From: Frankiales bacterium
GTDB taxonomy: Bacteria > Actinomycetota > Actinomycetes > Mycobacteriales > SCTD01
Assembly (NCBI GenBank): GCA_043740815.1
Contig: JAYUBO010000198.1
Location: 1 to 43,345 of the forward strand
Length of the DNA stretch: 43,345 nucleotides
Direction: 5' to 3'
The notes under the pieces: generated by a model
What the model saw: the letters and a program-made list of their open reading frames with translations, nothing else
What the model was told of the DNA's origin: nothing
Databases searched by the model: none
Shown: in pieces, positions 17,989 to 28,714 of the stretch
Layout of the letters: every line of letters begins with the position of its first letter
Position numbering within the stretch: the stretch's first letter is position 1
Translations under genes and position numbers: made by a program

Positions 17989-18518
17989 GAGCCTGCCTGC
18001 GGTGCAGCGGCTCATCCCCATCCCGGTGCGTTGCTGGCGCGCCCTGCGTCGCGACAGCAGCATGCTGGTGAGGTAGACCGGGGTAAGTGGGGTCCATCCC
18101 CACTGCTGGTCTATCGCCAGGTCGTCCCGGTGTCCCGCGCCGCTACCGAAGCAGCCGCCCAGCTGGTGGTCCCGAATGACGCGGCCCGACCACGCTGGCC
18201 CAGCTCGGCCCCATCTGGGTCCGAGAATGACCCTGGACTCGCTTCCATCAGGAAGAACGCCCAGGTCAAAGGGGGGTGCGCCGCCAGGTGCTCGAACCCC
18301 GAACCCCGCGCATTAAAGAGTCGATCTTCGGTAGTGACGGAGAGGTTTGTGTGGGTGCCCCCGCCGAATGCCAGCGTAGGCCGAAGCCGTGCAGAAAAGT
18401 GCGTGGAGTCTGGTGCGGCCGGACCGCGTTCACGCTGAACACATTCTGAACACAGACAAACCGCGGACTCACAGTCCGAGGTGGTGCCACGCAACCTTCC
18501 CCCGGGCGTTCCCGACTT

Positions 18519-19236
18519 CTAAGCGCAAGCCACTACGACGACTGGGGTCGCCCCGGCTGACCTCCTTAACGAGCTGTGACCGTCGGGTGTCGAGCTCGGC
18601 GATCTCTGCGTCGAGGTACTGCACCCTTCGTGCCAGGACCCGCAGCGCAAGCTTGGTGATGGTCGTGAAGTCGCTGCCTCGCCTGGCCGGAAGCCCGCGC
18701 AGAGCAGCACGATGTCGCCGATGGACAGGCTGCGGAGCTTCTCTCGAAGTTCGGCGGGAGCGGTGCTGACCAGGCGACGGATTTGGTTCAGCGACTGGGT
18801 GCGGGTCTTCACGCTCGAGTCCGAGTTCTCACCCTGGTGCGGTCCTCAGGGCGTCGGACTTCCCGACTCGCCGTCGAACTTGCCGGTTCGGCCGGTCCAT
18901 TTCCAGGACCGTCACATCTGCTGCTTGCAGAGAACGGCTAAGGCCAGCGCCGTAGGTGCTGGTCCCTTCGATCCCGACCTGTCCGACCTCCCCGAAACTG
19001 TGCAGCCATGCCAGGAGCTGCCGGTAGCCAGCTGGTGTCGTGGGGAACGACTTGGTCCCCAACAGCCCGCCGATGCTGCTCAGGGCTGCGGCGACATGGA
19101 CGTCCAGGTGGGTGTCAACACCACCAGTGATGACGTCGGCGGCGACATCGGTAACGGTTTTTGGCAGTGTGGAGCGGGCCATCGCGTTCTCCTTAGTCAG
19201 TTGCGTGGTGGCAGCACCAGCCGGGACGGCGGACAA
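18519..19236 (-). mobile_element. IS110-family transposase remnant (internal deletion, frameshift, 3' truncation)
   Basis: ORF 18829..19236 encodes the DEDD N-terminal domain (GGVDTHLDVHVAAAL...VGIEGTSTYGAGLSRSL...MDRPNRQVRRRVGKSD). ORF 18519..18812 continues with KTRTQSLNQIRRLVSTAPAELREKL, then shifts frame near 18660 to ITKLALRVLARRVQYLDAEIAELD. No intact C-terminal domain follows. A very degenerate trace (FSARLRPTLAFGGGTHTNLS..EDRLFNA) may extend to about 18111. Confidence 0.8.
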
Positions 19237-19519
19237 GACTGCGATGGGCTTGTTGGAGCAAGCTCCTCATAGGTCACCTCGACCGGTTGGTGCGCTTGAA
19301 CAGGCACCCGACGCCGAAGTCGATTGTTCATTACCCAGACAGCACAACTCGCGTCAGCCGGTTGCTTAGGGTCAGACTCAGCACCGGAGACCTGGCTGCA
19401 CCCTCGCAGATCCAAGACCGGCTAGCGCAGCAATCTTGATCATCCCAGCCGGTACGCAGGGGGTGCCGCACCGACCGTGCCGATCAGACCGTCGAGAGGG
19501 CCCCTGATGGGGCCTGTCA

Positions 19520-19660
19520 GTGATCGCCGTCTGCACAGGTAAAAGCGACATCGACCACCTGCTCATCGGCCCTGCCGGGGTGTTCCCCATCAACACCAAG
19601 AACCATCTAGGCGGCAAGGTCTGGGTTGGGGGACGTTTCCATGCCATTGAGCGTCCCACC
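19520..19660 (+). pseudogene. NERD-domain (nuclease-related) gene fragment
   Basis: VIAVCTGKSDIDHLLIGPAGVFPINTKNHLGGKVWVGG matches the core (x)DIDHLVIGPxGVFxxxTKxH motif of NERD proteins. An in-frame stop lies 5 codons upstream, the similarity is lost downstream, and the ORF tail runs into the convergent GNAT gene. Confidence 0.5.
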
Positions 19661-19763
19661 AGCCAGCGACTTCCACTGCTGCGGGATCGGTCGATTCCAC
19701 TCCTACTTCAGCCTGAGCCTCTGGCTCGTGGCCACCGCTCGGCGCCCCGGTCGATCAGTGTCC

Positions 19764-20333
19764 TTATCTGTCAGGGTTTCTTGGTAGGGGTGAAGAGTGG
19801 GGTGGGGCCACCCAAGCTCGCTGCTCCTGGAGGGCCTTCGTGAGCACGGCGAAGGCCAGGTCGTCGCGGCGGGGGCGGCCGAAGCGCTCCTCGCCGTACG
19901 GGAAGGGGCGGACCTCGCCGGTGTCGCGGTAGCCGCGCCGAAGGTAGAACGCAATCAGCTCCGTGCGCACCGACAGGACCGTCATCTCCACCCGGGACAG
20001 CCCGGCGCGGGCAGCGCGGGCCTCGGCCTCGGCGAGGATGGCGGAGCCGACGCCGGAGCCTTGAAGCCCGGGGCGGACGGCGAACATCCCGAAGTAGGCG
20101 TGGTCGTCCTGGGGGACGAGTGCGCAGCAACCGACAAGGGTGCAGTCCTCGAAGGCGAGCAGCAGCTGGGGCAGCGTCTCGAGGACGGCCTCGGGGTCGG
20201 TCCGCTGGCCGTCGAGCAGGTCGGCCTCGGTGGTCCACCCTTCCCGACTGGCCTCGCCGCGGTAGGCGGACTCGACCAGGGCAACGACGGTCGGGACGTC
20301 CTCAGGAGCAGCAGGCTGGAAGGTGAGCGTCAC
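19764..20333 (-). CDS. GNAT family N-acetyltransferase
   Basis: ORF 19764..20387 (TTG). The likely start is GTG 20333 (VTLTFQPAAPEDVPTVVALVESAY). Motif A reads FAVRPGLQGSGVGSAILAEAEARAARAG, followed by FYLRRGY. Confidence 0.8.
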   Translation of the reverse strand: MTLTFQPAAPEDVPTVVALVESAYRGEASREGWTTEADLLDGQRTDPEAVLETLPQLLLAFEDCTLVGCCALVPQDDHAYFGMFAVRPGLQGSGVGSAILAEAEARAARAGLSRVEMTVLSVRTELIAFYLRRGYRDTGEVRPFPYGEERFGRPRRDDLAFAVLTKALQEQRAWVAPPHSSPLPRNPDR

Positions 20334-21627: not shown

Positions 21628-22827
21628 CTAGGCCTGCCTCGTCTGGAGTGAGCGCAGCCGATCGACGAGGAATGCTCTTTCCACGGTGTTGTGGGTGAGC
21701 AGCAGCGCCTCCTGGTACGCCGTCGCTGCCTCGCCCTTGCGGCCAAGGCGGCGCAGGAAGTCAGCCCTGGCGGCGGAGAAGTAGCCGTAGGCCGCGAGGG
21801 CCGGCTCGCTACCGAGGGCGTCGAGGGCATCGAGCCCGGCCTCGGGGCCGTCGGCCATACCGGTGGCGACAGCCCGGTTGAGGGCGACGACCGGGCTGGG
21901 CCACTGCCGTTCGAGCAGCCCGTAGAGCGCGACGATCTCGCGCCAGTCGGTCTCCTGCCAGGTGCGGGCGTCGGCGTGCACCGCGGCGATGGCAGCCTGC
22001 AGGGCGTAGCGGCCGGGGGGACCCTGCTGCAGGGCGGACCGGACCTTGGCGACGGCGGCGTCGATGGCGGCGCGGTCCCAACGGGTGCGGTCTTGCTCCT
22101 CGAGCAGCAGCAGCCGACCGAGCTCGTCGGTGCGGGTGGCCCGCCGGGCATCGGTCAGCTCGATGAGTGCCAGCAGTCCCGTCACCTCCGGGGTCGGCAG
22201 CAGGCTGTGCAGCATCCGGGCGAGGTCCAGGGACCGCTCGACCAGGTCGTGACGGGTCAGGCGGTCCCCAACCGGGGCGGTGTGGCCGGTCGTGAACAGC
22301 AGGTGGAGCACGGCCAGCACGCCATCGACGCGCTCCGGCAGCTCCTGTGCGATGGGCACCCGGTAGGGGATCCGGGCCTGGCCGATCTTCTTCTTCGCCC
22401 GGGTGATCCGGGCGGCCATCGTCGGCTCGCTGACCAGGAAGGCGTGCGCCACCTCTGCCGTTGACAGCCCGCACAGCAGTCGCAGCGCCAGCGCCACCTG
22501 GGTCTCGGTCGCGAGAGCAGGGTGGCAGCACGTGAACACCAGCCGGAGCCGGTCGTCGGGGAACGGTCCTTGCGGGTCCTGCTCCTCGACGATCAGCAGC
22601 GGCAGCGCCTTGCCGAGCACCTGCTCCCGGCGCAGCAGGTCCACCGCCCGGTTGCGCGCGACGGTCGTCAGCCAGCCTCCGGGGCTGTTCGGCACCCCGC
22701 CCTGCCAGGTCAGCAGGGCCTTCGCGAACGCGTCCTGCACGCACTCCTGCGCCAGGTCGAGGTCACGTGTGACGCGCACCGTCGCGGCGAGCACGGCAGC
22801 CCACTCGCAACGATGCGCGTCAGCCAA
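21628..22827 (-). CDS. ECF-type RNA polymerase sigma factor with long C-terminal TPR-like extension (COG4941 type)
   Basis: 399 aa. Region 2 is LAQECVQDAFAKAL..W...PGGWLTTVARNRAVDLLRRE. Region 4 is RLRLVFTCCHPALATETQVALALRLLCGLSTAEVAHAFLVSEPTMAARITRAKKKI. It lies downstream of a YCII gene, which is the usual pairing. Confidence 0.85.
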   Translation of the reverse strand: MADAHRCEWAAVLAATVRVTRDLDLAQECVQDAFAKALLTWQGGVPNSPGGWLTTVARNRAVDLLRREQVLGKALPLLIVEEQDPQGPFPDDRLRLVFTCCHPALATETQVALALRLLCGLSTAEVAHAFLVSEPTMAARITRAKKKIGQARIPYRVPIAQELPERVDGVLAVLHLLFTTGHTAPVGDRLTRHDLVERSLDLARMLHSLLPTPEVTGLLALIELTDARRATRTDELGRLLLLEEQDRTRWDRAAIDAAVAKVRSALQQGPPGRYALQAAIAAVHADARTWQETDWREIVALYGLLERQWPSPVVALNRAVATGMADGPEAGLDALDALGSEPALAAYGYFSAARADFLRRLGRKGEAATAYQEALLLTHNTVERAFLVDRLRSLQTRQA

Positions 22828-22874: not shown

Positions 22875-23222
22875 TCAGTCGAAGACCCGCACCGGGCGGA
22901 CCTCGAGGGCGCCCCCAGGAGCCGGGATCTGCTTGGCCAGCGCGATCGCGCCGTCGAGATCCTCGGCCTCGACGACGTAGTAGCCGCCGAGCGCCTCCTT
23001 GGTCTCGAGGAAGGGACCGTCGGTGACGGTGAACGTCCCGTCGCCACCGGGGCGGATCGTGGTGGCCGTGTCAGGACCCTGCAGCGCGTTGCCGCCAGCA
23101 ATCTTGTCGCCGGCGGCCTCACCGAAGCTCAGGTGGCCCTTCATGACGTCGTCGACCAGGCCTTGCCCGCCCTCGGTATAGGCCTGAACGCTCTCGTAGA
23201 TCAGCACCAGGTACTGCGACAT
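22875..23222 (-). CDS. YCII-related (DGPF) domain protein
   Basis: ATG 23222 follows GAGGAG. The 115-aa protein reads MSQYLVLIYES...FTVTDGPFLETKEALGGYYVVEAEDLDGAIALAKQIP. The upstream part of ORF 22875..23507 is not protein-like. Confidence 0.85.
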   Translation of the reverse strand: MSQYLVLIYESVQAYTEGGQGLVDDVMKGHLSFGEAAGDKIAGGNALQGPDTATTIRPGGDGTFTVTDGPFLETKEALGGYYVVEAEDLDGAIALAKQIPAPGGALEVRPVRVFD

Positions 23223-23338: not shown

Positions 23339-24991
23339 ATGCCGCACCGCCCCGAGGATGCCCCCGCGGTGCTACGGGAGCTGCGCCTGCTCGACGGCCC
23401 CAACTTGTACTTCCCGCGGGCTGCCTGCAAGGTGGTCCTCGATCTACACGAGCTGCTCGCCCTGTCCGAGGACGACTTCGGCCGCCGGGCGGCACATTGG
23501 GGCACACCGGTGGCGCGTCCCGGCCCGCCGGGTTCGCAGGTACGGGCCCGGGTCCTCGCGAGGGTCCTGCTGGGCGTCACCCGCTCGCTGGCCCGCACCG
23601 CCGGGGTGGGGCGGCTCGCCGTACGAAGTAGACCGGGGCCCGAGCCGGGGCAGCTGACCGTCGCCTTCCCGTGGCGCAGACGAGGTCTCGCGCAGGCGCT
23701 CGGCGTGGCGTTGGCCCGGACCATGGAAGGCGCGTCCGTCGACTTGGTCGGTGTCGAGCCCGGGCCGATGCCGTCCACGCCACGGCCGCGGATCCCTGTC
23801 GTCGCTGTGACCGGTACCAACGGCAAGACGACCACCACCCGCCTGATCGCGCACATGTCGCGCTGCGCGGGCAACGTCACCGGCTGGGCCTCGACCGACG
23901 GCGTCTTCGTCGATGGCGTTGCCGTCGAGCAGGGCGACTGGAGCGGGTACGGCGGAGCGGGCCGCGTCCTGGCCGACCCCAGCGTGCAGCTGGCGGTCCT
24001 CGAGACGGCCCGCGGTGGCCTGCTGCTTCGGGGGGCCGGCTCGTTGCACAACGACGTCTCGGTCGTGACCAACGTCGGCGCAGATCACCTTGGCCTGCAG
24101 GGAATCCACACGATCGACGACCTCGCCGAGGTGAAGGCCGTCGTACCAGGGATCACGCGGGCGGGGGGCTGGTGCGTCCTCAACGCGCAGGACCCACGGG
24201 TGCTCGCGATGGCTGCCACCTCGAAGGGCCGGCCGTGGGTCTTTTCCCTCGACCCGTCAGCCCCCGGAGTGCGTACGGCGATGGATGCCCATGGGCGGGC
24301 GACGACCGTGATGGACGACTGCGTGACGGTGCTCGGCGAGGGCGGCCTGGTCGACCCGATGCTGGCCCTGGCCGACATCCCGATGACCCTGTCCGGGCTG
24401 TCCCGGCACGACGTCGCGAACGCCCTCGCCGCCGTCGCCGCCGGCCTCGCGATCGGGCTGCCCCGCGGTGCCGTCCTCGAAGGGCTGAGAACCTTCTCCG
24501 CCGAGGACAACCCGGGCCGGATGAACCTGTGGAGCGTCGACGGCTGCGTGCTGTCGCTGGACCTCGCCCACAACGAGGACGGGCTCACCGCTCTGCTGTC
24601 CGTCGTCCGGGGCCTGCGGCTGGACGGTGGCCGGGTCGTCACGGTGCTCGGTGCGGTCGGTGACCGGCTCGATGGTCAGCTGCGGGAGATGGGCCGGCTG
24701 GCCCGGAACGGCTCCGACGAGGTCGTCATCGCCGTCAAGGACAACTACCTGCGGGGACGCACCGTGTCCGAGCTGGTCGGGCTGCTTCGCGAGGGGGCCG
24801 GTGACGTACCCGCCTACGACGACGAGGCGACGGCGTTGCGGGCCGTCCTGCTGGGTCGGCACCCGGCCGACGTCGTGGCACTGCTGTGTCATCAGGATCG
24901 GGCGGGTTGTGAGGACGTCCTTCGGGCCGCCGGGGGTCTCCGGATGTCCGCCGACCAGGTCCACGCCCGCGTCCTTGCTGCCCGCGCCTAA
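23339..24991 (+). CDS. Cyanophycin-synthetase-like protein with N-domain and Mur-ligase (M) domain only; no ATP-grasp domain
   Basis: 550 aa. The N-terminus VLRELRLLDGPNLYFPRAACKVVLDL parallels CphA IVSSRVYRGPNYWSYDPAVHLQVDL. From residue ~150, PRIPVVAVTGTNGKTTTTRLIAHM...LETARGGLLLRG...NVGADHLGL aligns by eye at roughly half identity with residues ~490 onward of the adjacent CphA (SRIPIVAITGTNGKTTTSRMVSHI...FEVARGGLLREG...NVSPDHLGL). Confidence 0.8.
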   Translation: MPHRPEDAPAVLRELRLLDGPNLYFPRAACKVVLDLHELLALSEDDFGRRAAHWGTPVARPGPPGSQVRARVLARVLLGVTRSLARTAGVGRLAVRSRPGPEPGQLTVAFPWRRRGLAQALGVALARTMEGASVDLVGVEPGPMPSTPRPRIPVVAVTGTNGKTTTTRLIAHMSRCAGNVTGWASTDGVFVDGVAVEQGDWSGYGGAGRVLADPSVQLAVLETARGGLLLRGAGSLHNDVSVVTNVGADHLGLQGIHTIDDLAEVKAVVPGITRAGGWCVLNAQDPRVLAMAATSKGRPWVFSLDPSAPGVRTAMDAHGRATTVMDDCVTVLGEGGLVDPMLALADIPMTLSGLSRHDVANALAAVAAGLAIGLPRGAVLEGLRTFSAEDNPGRMNLWSVDGCVLSLDLAHNEDGLTALLSVVRGLRLDGGRVVTVLGAVGDRLDGQLREMGRLARNGSDEVVIAVKDNYLRGRTVSELVGLLREGAGDVPAYDDEATALRAVLLGRHPADVVALLCHQDRAGCEDVLRAAGGLRMSADQVHARVLAARA

Positions 24992-25052
24992 GCCCCTTAC
25001 GTCCTAGGAAAGGCCCCCTTAGGTCAGCATGGAGGCTAGGACGCAGCGGGGG

Positions 25053-27797
25053 TCAGAGGTCGGGGTCGCCGGTGGAGGTGTCAGCGCGGGCACCCGCCTG
25101 GGCTCGTTGGGAGCGTTCCTGGATTTCCGACCAGACGGCGGTGTGGCTGTCGACGCACAGGACGACGAGGTCGCCGGTGCCGGCCAGGTCAAGGGCGCGG
25201 CGGGTGGCCTGCATCTCGTCGTGGACCTGTTCGACGACACCGCAGCGCGCCCCGTCTGCCATGGCGGCACGGGCACCGTCCTCGATGAGCGCCGCGACCT
25301 GACCACTGGGCCGCCCCCGCAGGCGTTTGTCCTCGCGTACGACGAGCAGGTCGAAGTGCCGCGCGGCGACCTCGCCGAGCTCGCGCATGTCCTCATCACG
25401 CCGGTCGCCAGCGGTGGCGATGACGCCGATCCGGCGGTGCCGCAGCAAGTCGTCGGTGGGCTGGTCGCTGAGCTTGTCGACGAAGTCGCCGAGCAGTCGC
25501 ATACCGGCCGCGTTGTGGCAGTAGTCGACGACGACGGTGATCCCGTCGATCTCGGTCACGTTGAGGCGGCCGGGCGCGAGGTAGTAGGACGTGGTGAACG
25601 TCCGCAGCCCCTGCCGGATGTCGTGCAGTGGAGCGCCCGCAGCGAAGGCGGCGCCAGCTGCGGCCATCGCGTTCTGGACGTTCATGATCGCCTTGCCGCC
25701 GAAAGTGGCGGGCAGCAGGTGCGTCCAGGCGAGCTGCATGGACCGTCGGCCGTGCCGGATCAAGATCATGTCGCCCAGGTCGCCGCGCTCGAGTACGACG
25801 GCCCGGCCGCCACGGCGGCAGTGGTCGTCGACCCTCTTCCAGACCGGCGTACCGGGCTGCGACATCGTGAACCACACGACCTGGCCGCTGCAGGAGCGGG
25901 ACATCTTGGCGACCAGCGGGTCGTCGGCGTTGAGGACCGCGAAGCCGTCGCGGGGTACCGCCTCGACGATGACCTGCTTCACCGTGGCCAGCTGCTCGAT
26001 GGTGTCGATGCCACCGAGCCCGAGGTGGTCGGGGGAGACGTTCAGGACGACCGCGACGTCGTTGCGCTCGTAGCCCAGGCCTTCGCGCAGTAGGCCTCCG
26101 CGGGCGACCTCGAAGACGGCGAAGTCGACGCGCGGGTTCTGCAGCACCATCCGGGCGCTCTTGGGGCCGGACGCGTCAGCCCGGATGACCAGGCGCTCGT
26201 CGATGACGATGCCGTCGGTCGAGGTCATCCCGACCTTGCGGCCCAGGCCTTTGAAGATGTGCGACACCATTCGCGACGTCGTCGTCTTGCCGTTGGTGCC
26301 GGTGATCGCGACGATGGGGATGCGGGAGGGGGTACCGGGCGGGAACAGCAGGTCGATGACGGGCTTCGCGACGTACTGCGGCTCGCCGACCGTCGGGTTG
26401 GTGTGCATCCGGAAGCCCGGGGCGGCGTTGACCTCGACGATGCCGCCGCCAACCTCACGGACCGGGTCGGAGATGTCGACGGCCATGAAGTCGATGCCGG
26501 CGACGTCGAGGCCGACGACGCGGGCCGCCTCCTCGGCGATCTCGACGTTGTCCGGATGGGCTTCGAGGGTCCGGTCGATCGAGATGCCGCCGGTCGACAT
26601 GTTGGCAGTCAGCGTGAGCTTTACCATGACGCCCCGGTCAGGGACGGCGGACCGGGTCAGGCCCTGCGCGCCAAGCAGCTCGTCGGCCGCCTCGTCGAGG
26701 GCGATCCTGGTGAGGACCTTCTCGTGGCCGACGCCCCGGCGGGGGTCGGCGTTCGTGACCTCGACCAGCTCGGCGACGGTCTGGACGCCGTCGCCGATGA
26801 CGTGGGCCGGCACCCGCTCGGCGACGGCGACCATCCGGCCGCCGACAACCAGGAACCGGTAGTCGCTGCCCACCAGGTAGGTCTCGACGATGACCCAGCC
26901 GCGGCGGGACTCGCTTTTGGCGACGTCGAAGGCTTTCGCGACCGCTGCGTCGTCACGCAGGTCGAGCCCGACCCCGCGCCCGTGGTTGCCGTCGGCCGGC
27001 TTCAGCACGACCGGGAAGCCGATCCGATGGGCGACCTCCAACGCGTCGTCGAGTGTCCGGACGGCCTTGGACTGCGGCACCGGCAGCCCAGCCGAGGACA
27101 GCAGCTGCAGGGTCATCTCCTTGTCGCTCGCGATGTCGACCGCAAGCGAGCCCGTCTGGGAGGTCATGGTGGCCCGGATCCGTTTTGCGTGGACCCCCTG
27201 CCCGAGCTGCACGAGCGACGCGGTGTTGAGTCGCATCCACGGGATGTCTCGGGACACGGCCTCATCGACCAGCGACTGGGTCGACGGCCCGAAGGCGGCC
27301 TTCTGGGCGAGCAGCAGCAGCCGCTCGATCTCGCCGCCGGGGTCGAGGTTGGGCTCGGCCTGCACGAGGTGATTCACCAGCCGGACGGCGAGCTTGCCGG
27401 CCGCGACCCCGACGGTCTCATCGGAATAGGCGTAGATCACGTCGTACACCCCGGGTCGGCCGGCGGTGCCCCGGGTCTTGCCACGCGACACGTCGGCGCC
27501 GGTGAGCTTTTGCAGCTCCAGGGCGACGTGCTCCGCGACGTGCCCGAGCCAGGTGCCCTCGTCAAGGCGCTCGGCAAAGCCACCGGCCTTGCGTCGTGAG
27601 CAGGAGTGCTCGCCGACGCCGGGAAGCAGTGCGAGCAGCGCCTCGGTGAAGCCCGGGATCAGGTCGGTCGGGAACTGCTCGAGACCCCCCAGGTCGACCT
27701 GCAGGTGTACCGCCGGGTCATACGACCAGTAGTTCGGTCCGCGGTAGACGCGGCTCGACACGATCGTCAGGTCGGGCGACGGCAGGGAGGTGGTCAT
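25053..27797 (-). CDS. cphA: Cyanophycin synthetase (N, ATP-grasp G and Mur-ligase M domains)
   Basis: 914 aa. N-domain: RVYRGPNYWSY, GEHSCS, GTWLGHVAEHVALELQ. ATP-grasp region: FPVVLKPADGNHGRGV, VNAAPGFRMH. M-domain: ITGTNGKTTT, DHLGLGGI. The start overlaps the cphB stop (ATGA). Confidence 0.93.
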   Translation of the reverse strand: MTTSLPSPDLTIVSSRVYRGPNYWSYDPAVHLQVDLGGLEQFPTDLIPGFTEALLALLPGVGEHSCSRRKAGGFAERLDEGTWLGHVAEHVALELQKLTGADVSRGKTRGTAGRPGVYDVIYAYSDETVGVAAGKLAVRLVNHLVQAEPNLDPGGEIERLLLLAQKAAFGPSTQSLVDEAVSRDIPWMRLNTASLVQLGQGVHAKRIRATMTSQTGSLAVDIASDKEMTLQLLSSAGLPVPQSKAVRTLDDALEVAHRIGFPVVLKPADGNHGRGVGLDLRDDAAVAKAFDVAKSESRRGWVIVETYLVGSDYRFLVVGGRMVAVAERVPAHVIGDGVQTVAELVEVTNADPRRGVGHEKVLTRIALDEAADELLGAQGLTRSAVPDRGVMVKLTLTANMSTGGISIDRTLEAHPDNVEIAEEAARVVGLDVAGIDFMAVDISDPVREVGGGIVEVNAAPGFRMHTNPTVGEPQYVAKPVIDLLFPPGTPSRIPIVAITGTNGKTTTSRMVSHIFKGLGRKVGMTSTDGIVIDERLVIRADASGPKSARMVLQNPRVDFAVFEVARGGLLREGLGYERNDVAVVLNVSPDHLGLGGIDTIEQLATVKQVIVEAVPRDGFAVLNADDPLVAKMSRSCSGQVVWFTMSQPGTPVWKRVDDHCRRGGRAVVLERGDLGDMILIRHGRRSMQLAWTHLLPATFGGKAIMNVQNAMAAAGAAFAAGAPLHDIRQGLRTFTTSYYLAPGRLNVTEIDGITVVVDYCHNAAGMRLLGDFVDKLSDQPTDDLLRHRRIGVIATAGDRRDEDMRELGEVAARHFDLLVVREDKRLRGRPSGQVAALIEDGARAAMADGARCGVVEQVHDEMQATRRALDLAGTGDLVVLCVDSHTAVWSEIQERSQRAQAGARADTSTGDPDL

Positions 27798-28714
27798 GAC
27801 GATGCGCCCTCCTGGCTGAGGCGACGGGGGACGTTGCCCACCGCTCCCTCGACGGCGATCAGCCGCTCGACCCTGCTGCGCACATGAGGGGGCTCGCGCA
27901 GGTCGTCGGGACGCCCACCGACACCGGGGAGCAGCAGGCGGGCGGCGAGGTCGAAACGGGCTCCAGCCGGCAGCGAGTGCACCACCATGCCCGACACGAG
28001 GATGGGTGCGCTCCGGGCAGCGGTGTCGATGTTGGACGTGGCGGTCCGGCCGTCGAACAGCGTGACGGCGCCGCGACCGATGACCTCGAGCAGATGCCCC
28101 TGCGTGATGATGGCTGCTGTGTCCTCATCGACGCCCATGCCGAGCAGGTGCGGGGCGTGCGACACCAGGGTCAGCAGCCGGCCATAACGGTTGCGCTGGT
28201 CGAAGTGCTGGTCGATCACCAGCCCGGGCAGCAGGCCCAGCCCGGCCGACATCTGGGCGCCACGCATCTTGGGCGTCGTACCGGGGGGGCCGAAGGCGAC
28301 CATGTGCTCGCTCTGGACCGAGGCGCCGGCAGAGGTGCCACCGACGACCACCCCCCGGATGTGGGCCATCTTGATGGCCGTTCCGAACGTCGTGCCGGCC
28401 AGGACCGCTGACAACGTCGACTGGTTGCCACCGGTCATGAAGATGCCGGTCACGTCGTGCAGCTGGGCGACCTGGTGCGGATCCTCAGCGTCAGCGCGGG
28501 TGCGCGGCCGGGGCGCCACGACGTCGGTGACACCGAGCTTGCCGAAGGCCTCGCGGTAGGCATCGATGATCTCCGCACCGAGCGAAGAGGCGGTCGCGAT
28601 GACCGCGACCTTCGCGCCAGGACCGCCGGCGAGCTTGGCGAAGCGGGCGAGAACCTGACGCGCGCCGGTCTTGTCCTCGGCGCCGCCGATGACCATCAGG
28701 GGGCCGGTCGTCAT
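27794..28714 (-). CDS. cphB: Cyanophycinase (peptidase S51)
   Basis: 306 aa. Contains MVIGGAEDK, FMTGGNQ, GGTSAGAS (nucleophile Ser) and VIDQHF..RNRYGRL. It is translationally coupled to cphA. Confidence 0.9.
   Translation of the reverse strand: MTTGPLMVIGGAEDKTGARQVLARFAKLAGGPGAKVAVIATASSLGAEIIDAYREAFGKLGVTDVVAPRPRTRADAEDPHQVAQLHDVTGIFMTGGNQSTLSAVLAGTTFGTAIKMAHIRGVVVGGTSAGASVQSEHMVAFGPPGTTPKMRGAQMSAGLGLLPGLVIDQHFDQRNRYGRLLTLVSHAPHLLGMGVDEDTAAIITQGHLLEVIGRGAVTLFDGRTATSNIDTAARSAPILVSGMVVHSLPAGARFDLAARLLLPGVGGRPDDLREPPHVRSRVERLIAVEGAVGNVPRRLSQEGASS

Follow-up and report, generated by a model that had tools for sequence, protein, structure and literature searches.

A gene for a reduced relative of cyanophycin synthetase is described here from positions 23339 to 24991 of a 43,345-nucleotide stretch of DNA of a Frankiales bacterium (NCBI GenBank assembly GCA_043740815.1, contig JAYUBO010000198.1; the whole stretch is hereafter referred to as the window). 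Its 550-residue product joins an N-terminal (N) domain and a Mur-ligase (M) domain of the type found in cyanophycin synthetase 1 (CphA1) and is devoid of the ATP-grasp (G) domain that elongates the backbone. This architecture and fold recur in a family of proteins (hereafter N+M proteins) with conserved catalytic residues, and the genes are linked to cphA and cphB, encoding cyanophycin synthetase and cyanophycinase. The N+M protein is very probably an active ATP-dependent ligase of the CphA type. The function that we favour, with slightly more confidence than doubt, is that of a stand-alone ligase which adds side chains in trans to cyanophycin or primer chains that CphA has made and that end in Asp.

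Absence of the G domain and conservation of the M domain

The gene was read as a single unbroken open reading frame (ORF), and its ATG start at position 23339 is supported by the N-terminus MPHRP that is common to the homologues. The alignment of its N region with CphA stops near residue 121 and that of its M region begins at residue 145, leaving CphA residues ~134-486 without a counterpart. A linker of about 23 residues stands for roughly 350 residues of CphA and replaces the end of the CphA N domain and the entire G domain of ~320 amino acids. No ATP-grasp match was obtained for the N+M protein with Pfam, against eight ATP-grasp models matched by the CphA of the window. The initial annotation, made from the letters of the DNA, had described an intact gene rather than a broken copy, without about 340 residues of the ATP-grasp domain and with an M segment matching CphA from its residue ~490 onward; these descriptions were all borne out, and the same architecture is present in hundreds of clusters.

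Residues 145-487 align by BLASTP with residues 487-842 of the window CphA at 39% identity over 358 amino acids (E-value 2e-54), the alignment including PRIPVVAVTGTNGKTTT in the N+M protein and SRIPIVAITGTNGKTTT in CphA. The match to the CphA1 structure 7lg5 of the PDB has an E-value of 4e-68. Pfam identified PF08245 (64 bits, residues 157-368) and PF02875 (48 bits, residues 393-515), both above their gathering scores. The protein scores 344.5 bits with TIGR02068, below the cut-off of 850, and aligns with model positions 475-846 only.

The M site of TeCphA1 comprises the P-loop residue K499, the Mg ligands T500, T522 and E558, and the M-lid residues R731 and H748 that contact the ATP phosphates; in SuCphA1 the D585A/H586A mutations yield an inactive M domain (PMC9262961). 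The residues corresponding to these in the N+M protein are K163, T164, T186 and E222 (TeCphA1 K499, T500, T522 and E558), D249 and H250 (SuCphA1 D585 and H586), and R394 and H411 (TeCphA1 R731 and H748, as paired by the aligned PGRxN and AHN motifs). All eight are conserved in 92-100% of the family, R394 and H411 being invariant. The M-lid also carries H411/N412, G441-D442-R443 and Y470-L-R472-G-R474.

A reference set of 68 columns, each conserved in at least 90% of 74 CphA M domains, was used to compare the different ligases. The N+M family keeps 55 of these columns (81%), a second G-less type described below keeps 52 and E. coli MurE keeps 32; the LRGR and GDR motifs are retained in the N+M family. 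Taken together, the conservation of the catalytic residues and of the CphA-invariant columns indicates that the N+M protein is very probably functional as a ligase. Six residues, G206, N238, E264, N391, E413 and Y470, are fixed in the family where CphA differs, and three of them (G206, N391 and Y470) are common to the second G-less type. Y470 directly precedes the LRGR motif, the first Arg of which has as its aligned counterpart in E. coli MurE an Arg that we take to be part of the DNPR amino-acid-binding motif.

A divergent N domain of the CphA type

The N region gave no significant BLASTP match to the window CphA (E-value 3.3), and PF18921, the Pfam model for the CphA N domain, missed the window protein and all the 49 homologues searched even at E-values of up to 10. 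With hhalign, the family N profile was compared with one built from 28 CphA N domains of the fetched loci, which yielded a probability of 93% and an E-value of 2.9e-7 over 117 collinear columns. These span residues 5-121 of the family and 5-133 of CphA and pair LDGPNLYF with YRGPNYWS, whereas the reversed and 30 column-shuffled controls had E-values of 0.014 or higher and probabilities of 3% or less.

AlphaFold predicted both the whole protein (pLDDT 92.5, pTM 0.90) and the isolated N region (pLDDT 92.6) with high scores; the fold of the latter is beta-beta-alpha-alpha-alpha-beta-beta-alpha. When the N-only model was searched against the PDB with Foldseek, the top 11 matches were CphA1 and CphA2 chains (probability 0.87-1.00, TMq 0.45-0.59, 133-153 columns), followed by unrelated matches of low probability and one more CphA2 chain. 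RNA-polymerase subunits are among this tail, which fits the published statement that the CphA N domain resembles in part the alpha subunit of RNA polymerase. The M domain dominates the search with the full-length model, which gave one alignment of 605 columns, to 7wae_A, with a root-mean-square deviation (rmsd) of 17.8. On these profile and model comparisons, residues 1 to ~130 are judged to be a remote, genuine CphA-type N domain, in keeping with the resemblance of LDGPNLYFP to YRGPNYWSY pointed out in the initial annotation.

Invariant residues of the N region are L18, G20, N22, Y24, F25, K31, R82, R96, R98 and P111-W112-R113, and the G-P-N core of the hairpin is common to CphA and both G-less types. 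Y14 and I17 of SuCphA1 belong to a hydrophobic loop touching the M domain (PMC9262961), and the residue numbering would place them in the GPNYWS motif. The LDGPNLYF hairpin, the segment best conserved between the family and CphA, appears to correspond to this loop of CphA1, which packs on the M domain.

The description as a CphA-type N domain needs one refinement, namely that the peptidase site is missing. The Cx19HxxEH metallopeptidase motif, which makes CphA1 primer-independent and is typical of such enzymes, if not universal, was found in none of 49 family members, and is present in the window CphA (C66-H90), in seven of seven partner CphAs and in 25 of the 28 sampled CphA N domains. The family N domain is hence best regarded as a divergent variant, predicted to be non-catalytic. 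Primer supply was considered as its role and rejected, since the motif is absent from the family and already present in the partner CphAs. The N domains of the 49 aligned members have a mean net charge of +4.9 and a pI of 10.5, compared with a mean of -4.4 (-3 to -8) for the partner CphA N domains of L002-L008. Two Chloroflexota members depart from the trend (-12 and +16), and the basic N domain is a weak hint of an anionic (poly-Asp) acceptor.

Linkage to cphA and cphB

The N+M gene was described in the initial annotation as convergent with cphA, and the two genes are indeed separated by a 61-bp spacer, an arrangement kept in other genomes. A cphA gene lies on the opposite strand within 8 kb of the N+M gene in the window and in 13 of the 15 other informative loci (14 of 16 in all), L001 having been left out since it ends too early. 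The loci with a complete cphA are L002-L009, L025 from Chloroflexia and L082-L085, in which the two genes are mostly directly convergent and cphB is usually present; L086 has a cphA remnant only. In two long metagenome contigs the cphA beside the N+M gene was called in fragments, at L084:9692-12470 (a 623-aa Mur-ligase part) and L086:11241-12140 (a 299-aa Mur_ligase_C part), which may reflect assembly frameshifts or a real decay of cphA beside an intact N+M gene.

A reverse survey was performed on 80 metagenomic loci with relatives of the window CphA (63-88% identity; cphA of the actinobacterial type), with the N+M gene counted by a full-length criterion. It was found in 34 of 52 loci with at least 1.8 kb of downstream sequence and in 27 of 35 with at least 4 kb, and all the 35 N+M copies are on the strand opposite cphA. 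Since the pairing is kept, invariably on opposite strands, while the other neighbours vary, the linkage is strong and orientation-specific, and the N+M gene is an accessory and not an obligatory companion of cphA.

The Nocardioides-type loci have two adh_short genes of the short-chain dehydrogenase/reductase (SDR) type upstream of the N+M gene and on the same strand (L082:8447-9947, L083:3284-4805 and L086:5464-7006). The pair directly adjoins the N+M gene in L082 and L083, is separated from it by one gene in L086 and is absent from the window. Two database gene calls, P0129 and P0232, appear to join an SDR fragment to the N domain.

Distribution and phylogeny of the N+M family

Full-length homologues of 520-585 amino acids with 52-92% identity to the window protein occur in Frankiales, Mycobacteriales, Nocardioides, Kribbella and Terrabacter, and homologues with 37-39% identity in Chloroflexota. 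A search of 1.84 billion representative proteins with the N-domain profile retrieved 355 clusters (50% identity) at E-values of 1e-3 or lower. Many of these are metagenomic fragments, the full-length ones having 549-585 amino acids, and no protein of CphA size is present among the best 150 matches. The family is characterised by a length of ~520-585 amino acids, an N domain with LxGxNxYF...K and PWR, a short linker, a CphA-type M domain and a gene convergent with cphA, all of which hold for the window protein. One member, P0152 (745 aa), has a TPR_5 domain (622-740) C-terminal to N+M, a hint that at least one lineage may interact with other proteins. Neither Pfam nor NCBIfam has a model specific to the N+M family, and its members are listed in the source databases as 'cyanophycin synthetase' or 'Mur ligase family protein', apart from a single 'cphA 2' assigned automatically.

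The M domains of 26 family members, 40 CphAs, eight proteins of the second G-less type and E. coli MurC, MurD, MurE and MurF were used for a neighbour-joining tree, the members being classed by the presence of the G domain. The N+M family (bootstrap 71%) and CphA (77%) each form a clade of their own, and the two clades are sisters (56%); the second G-less type branches outside this pair, and MurE is the nearest outgroup. The M domain thus groups with CphA and not with MurC/D/E/F. In this tree the N+M gene clearly appears as an old sister lineage to CphA and not as a recent G-deleted copy of its neighbour. This refines the initial annotation, in which the gene was called a cyanophycin-synthetase paralog.

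A second G-less type

Another type of G-less protein, referred to here as the second type, came to light in loci that had been retrieved by their matches to the CphA M domain. These proteins have ~560-660 amino acids, start with 'DSRRLTGPN...' and consist of an N region of ~170-240 amino acids followed by an M domain of the CphA type that is complete and has the catalytic residues. Their matches to the cyanophycin synthetase models are partial (326-375 bits, the cut-offs being 850 or higher). Only a marginal hhalign match links their N region to the N domain (E-values 2e-4 to 3e-3 over 33-63 columns), and it is not claimed here as an N domain. The second type resembles the N+M family in being G-less, in its RxLxGPN-type hairpin, in G206, N391 and Y470 and in its position beside cphA; it differs in its longer N region, its deeper branch in the tree and its orientation, since most copies immediately follow cphA and share its strand rather than being convergent with it. 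Its occurrence beside cphA in other phyla (Table 1) means that the pairing of a G-less M protein with cphA recurs across phyla. No description of the second type was found in the open-access papers searched.

Ten proteobacterial loci (L043, L029, L075, L023, L024, L026, L015, L053, L068 and L057) have a second cphA-like ORF of ~690-785 amino acids upstream of the main cphA match. The M match of these ORFs covers the M-core only (query ~3-240) without the lid, a reduction opposite to that of the window gene, and they presumably represent the tandem cphA/cphA' arrangement already known, in which a truncated M domain occurs.

Relation to known enzymes

The N+M protein shares with CphA1 (Synechocystis sp. 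UTEX2470, PDB 7LG5; Trichodesmium erythraeum, PDB 7WAC) the N fold, the hairpin docking on the M domain, the M-core and the M-lid, and its gene occupies the same locus as cphA and cphB. It differs from CphA1 in having no G domain, so that it is predicted to be unable to extend a poly-Asp backbone and complete synthesis of the polymer from Asp, Arg and ATP is not expected of it, in lacking Cx19HxxEH, in an N domain beyond Pfam detection, in its score (344 versus 850 bits) and in forming a separate clade in the M tree. The absence of the G domain and a score under the TIGR02068 cut-off thus set it apart from CphA1. CphA2 (Stanieria sp., PDB 8FXH/8FXI) is likewise a reduced relative with a non-catalytic N domain devoid of the peptidase motif. 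Its reduction is the reverse, however, as the published CphA2 retains an active G domain, and its M domain is inactive and truncated, with the P-loop and M-lid gone; hence the N+M protein is not a CphA2 either, as had been surmised in the initial annotation.

The Mur ligases (MurC/D/E/F, FPGS, MurT and CapB) have in common with the N+M protein the Mur_ligase_M and Mur_ligase_C domains and the acyl-phosphate amide-ligase chemistry. The UDP-MurNAc-binding domain 1 is missing from the N+M protein, whose N-terminal domain is of the CphA type, the N-only model having matched CphA N domains and not Mur domain 1. The highest scores with MurE models are 90-101 bits (cut-offs 257-1023), with matches confined to the middle and C-terminal domains, and all the Mur-family NCBIfam scores are far below their cut-offs. 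With the wrong N domain and scores under the cut-offs, the protein is not a MurE. No mention of a G-less CphA relative was found in the open-access papers searched, including the main structural and bioinformatic papers on cyanophycin.

Proposed function and alternatives

In CphA1 the acceptor analogue (beta-Asp-Arg)n-Asn sits between the N domain and the M-core, and the M site binds only chains with an unmodified terminal Asp. As the acceptor groove of CphA1 is formed by N and M-core, the N+M protein keeps exactly the modules that make up the M-site acceptor groove. In the mechanism that we propose, which is modelled on the M-site reaction of CphA1, the groove between its N domain and M-core would hold a cyanophycin or primer chain ending in an Asp with a free beta-carboxylate, from which the M-core would form an acyl-phosphate with ATP and Mg2+. 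The M-lid would position an amino acid, with L-Arg or one akin to it as the likeliest, for attack on the acyl-phosphate to give an isopeptide bond, and the side-chain decoration of the polymer would be completed, repaired or diversified. We infer the action in trans on chains of the neighbouring CphA from the inability of the N+M protein to lengthen a backbone, and Arg is the default amino acid because 81% of the CphA-invariant positions are kept. The N domain would serve as a mere polymer tether, given that the primer-generating peptidase site is absent. The suggestion in the initial annotation that a CphA-made backbone is decorated, perhaps with another amino acid, is consistent with the convergent synteny and the catalytic residues.

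Several observations weigh against a stand-alone Arg ligase. The partner CphAs have an intact M domain, beside which a second Arg ligase looks redundant. The lid positions R800, D803 and F815, conserved in CphA, are not kept in the N+M family, and the G-less-specific G206, N391, E413 and Y470 replace CphA residues, substitutions which might point to another amino acid, or to another acceptor. L010 (Sphaerobacteraceae) has no cphA within 8 kb of its N+M gene, and about a quarter of the related cphA loci are without an N+M gene. Furthermore, the tree is a simple neighbour-joining one with moderate support (56-77%), and the comparison of the N-M orientation in the model with that in CphA1 is not a rigorous one (rmsd 17.8).

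The redundancy with the partner M domain and the shared signature substitutions keep a tailoring or capping role alive. The same chemistry on the polymer acceptor might be used to add a non-Arg amino acid (Lys, Orn, citrulline or Glu) or a terminal cap, implying a hetero-decorated or terminated cyanophycin beyond what CphA alone makes. A distinct specificity would explain why both enzymes are retained when CphA already adds Arg, and it is in line with the loss of R800, D803 and F815, with the fixation of Y470, N391, E413 and G206, three of them common to the second G-less type, and with an N-domain charge inverted with respect to the partner CphAs (+4.9 versus -4.4). However, 81% of the CphA-invariant M positions are kept, including the LRGR and GDR motifs, and the charge trend is not universal, as the Chloroflexota members illustrate; on balance this possibility is tentative and well behind the preferred reading. 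A ligase for a non-cyanophycin substrate, such as a small-molecule or cell-wall carboxylate, with an inherited and non-functional adjacency to cphA, seems distinctly unlikely. It would suit the context of L010, which is foreign to cyanophycin (ParB, Ogt, a sigma factor and MreB), the position of the N+M gene after two same-strand SDR genes in Nocardioides-type loci and the fact that convergent genes are not co-transcribed. Yet the convergent pairing with cphA spans Actinomycetota families into Chloroflexia while the other neighbours change, the cyanophycin-tethering N domain and the docking hairpin are kept, and an independent second G-less lineage is likewise found beside cphA.

Two further explanations deserve still less credence. 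A non-enzymatic regulatory or scaffolding partner, binding cyanophycin or CphA, for instance in hetero-oligomers through M-core contacts, has some appeal in that the M-core mediates the tetramer contacts of CphA1, that P0152 bears a C-terminal TPR domain and that CphA2 is a precedent for a catalytically dead M domain. It is nevertheless improbable, as the residues for ATP, Mg and acyl-phosphate are 92-100% conserved, including D249/H250, whose counterparts inactivate the CphA1 M domain when mutated, whereas the P-loop and the lid are gone from the dead M domain of CphA2. Finally, a cphA copy which has lost its G domain by an assembly error or a recent deletion is hardly credible. The gene has the superficial look of an internal deletion and nothing more; the ORF is intact, many genomes and metagenomes contain homologues (52-92% identity) of equal length and architecture, the M domain shares just 39% identity with that of the neighbouring CphA and falls in a separate clade, and the N domain has diverged beyond detection by hidden Markov models. 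An assembly deletion in particular is excluded by the size and conservation of the family. Side-chain ligation in trans on CphA-made chains is the preferred function of the N+M protein.

Organisation of the locus

The features of the window and the positions of the second G-less type are listed in Table 1. The window CphA scores 1142 bits with TIGR02068 (cut-off 850) and matches PF18921, ATP-grasp, Mur_ligase_M and Mur_ligase_C, and the cyanophycinase scores 229 bits with TIGR02069 (cut-off 126.6) and matches PF03575. On the other side, a YCII-domain gene at 22875-23222 (reverse strand) is divergent from the N+M gene, with 116 bp between them, and a gene for a sigma factor of the ECF type, with DUF6596 as its C-terminal domain, is located at 21628-22827 (reverse strand). 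The sigma factor and YCII pair is not kept beside the N+M gene in other loci; L010 has a sigma-70-family gene nearby. The GC content of the window is ~70%, and scans for consensus promoters and terminators, including the 61-bp spacer, gave no match, such scans being uninformative in actinobacterial sequence of 70% GC. Two adjacent ORFs at 18829-19236 and 18519-18812 (both reverse strand) resemble in their translations the N- and C-terminal halves of a split transposase, and are situated in a dip of GC content at 18001-20000 (0.648 compared with ~0.70).

Table 1. Coordinates of the G-less gene, its parts and partners in the window, and of second-type G-less genes in other loci
Feature	Position	Strand	Basis or remark
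G-less cyanophycin-synthetase-like gene (N + M)	23339..24991	+	550 aa, TAA at 24989-24991
N domain, residues 1-~130	23339..23728	+	hhalign, N-only model, Foldseek
Hairpin motif LDGPNLYF, residues 18-25	23390..23413	+	Invariant columns, hhalign
Linker, residues ~131-147	23729..23779	+	Gap between N and M alignments, ATP-grasp match absent
M-core, residues ~148-386, Mur-ligase middle domain	23780..24496	+	PF08245 at 157-368
P-loop GTNGKTT	23813-23833	+	Inside M-core
Catalytic DHLG, D249/H250	24083-24094	+	Inside M-core
M-lid, residues ~387-550, Mur-ligase C-terminal domain	24497..24988	+	PF02875 at 393-515
Convergent spacer, 61 bp, N+M stop to cphA stop	24992..25052		Sequence reading
cphA, cyanophycin synthetase 1, 914 aa, N+G+M	25053..27797	-	TIGR02068, Pfam
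cphB, cyanophycinase, 306 aa, 4-nt overlap with cphA start	27794..28714	-	TIGR02069, PF03575
Second type, Gammaproteobacteria	L016 from ~9330; L054:9342-11072; L062:9377-11047; L063 inside ORF starting 6536	+	
Second type, Myxococcota	L032 from ~62; L073:9380-11242	+	
Second type, Planctomycetota	L080 from ~8394	+	
Second type, Acidobacteriota	L030 from ~9070	+	

Implications

The cyanophycin enzymes are currently treated as a small closed set consisting of CphA1, CphA2, CphB and the dipeptidases. A conserved predicted ligase beside cphA in about three-quarters of the sampled related loci of the actinobacterial type (27 of 35) implies an undescribed step in the making or tailoring of the polymer. 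The family also bears on the evolutionary assembly of the three-domain CphA1. N+M may represent the original framework, CphA1 having arisen by insertion of the ATP-grasp domain into it. A broader and speculative proposal, which we advance with much reserve, is that G-less CphA relatives tailor cyanophycin and have been overlooked as a class; this class would comprise two or more deep lineages (in Actinomycetota, Chloroflexota, Proteobacteria, Myxococcota, Planctomycetota and Acidobacteriota) and would add a non-Arg side chain or an end cap to polymer made by CphA, so that the natural polymer in these organisms would differ from the Asp-Arg textbook form.

If the N+M protein adds Arg in trans, side-chain ligation would be uncoupled from backbone growth, and the protein would provide a simple model enzyme for the M site as well as a means of decorating poly-Asp. 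Should the added group be another amino acid or a cap, the natural cyanophycin of soil bacteria would have to be redefined, and the enzyme would be a biocatalyst for designer cyanophycins, an active goal of biotechnology.

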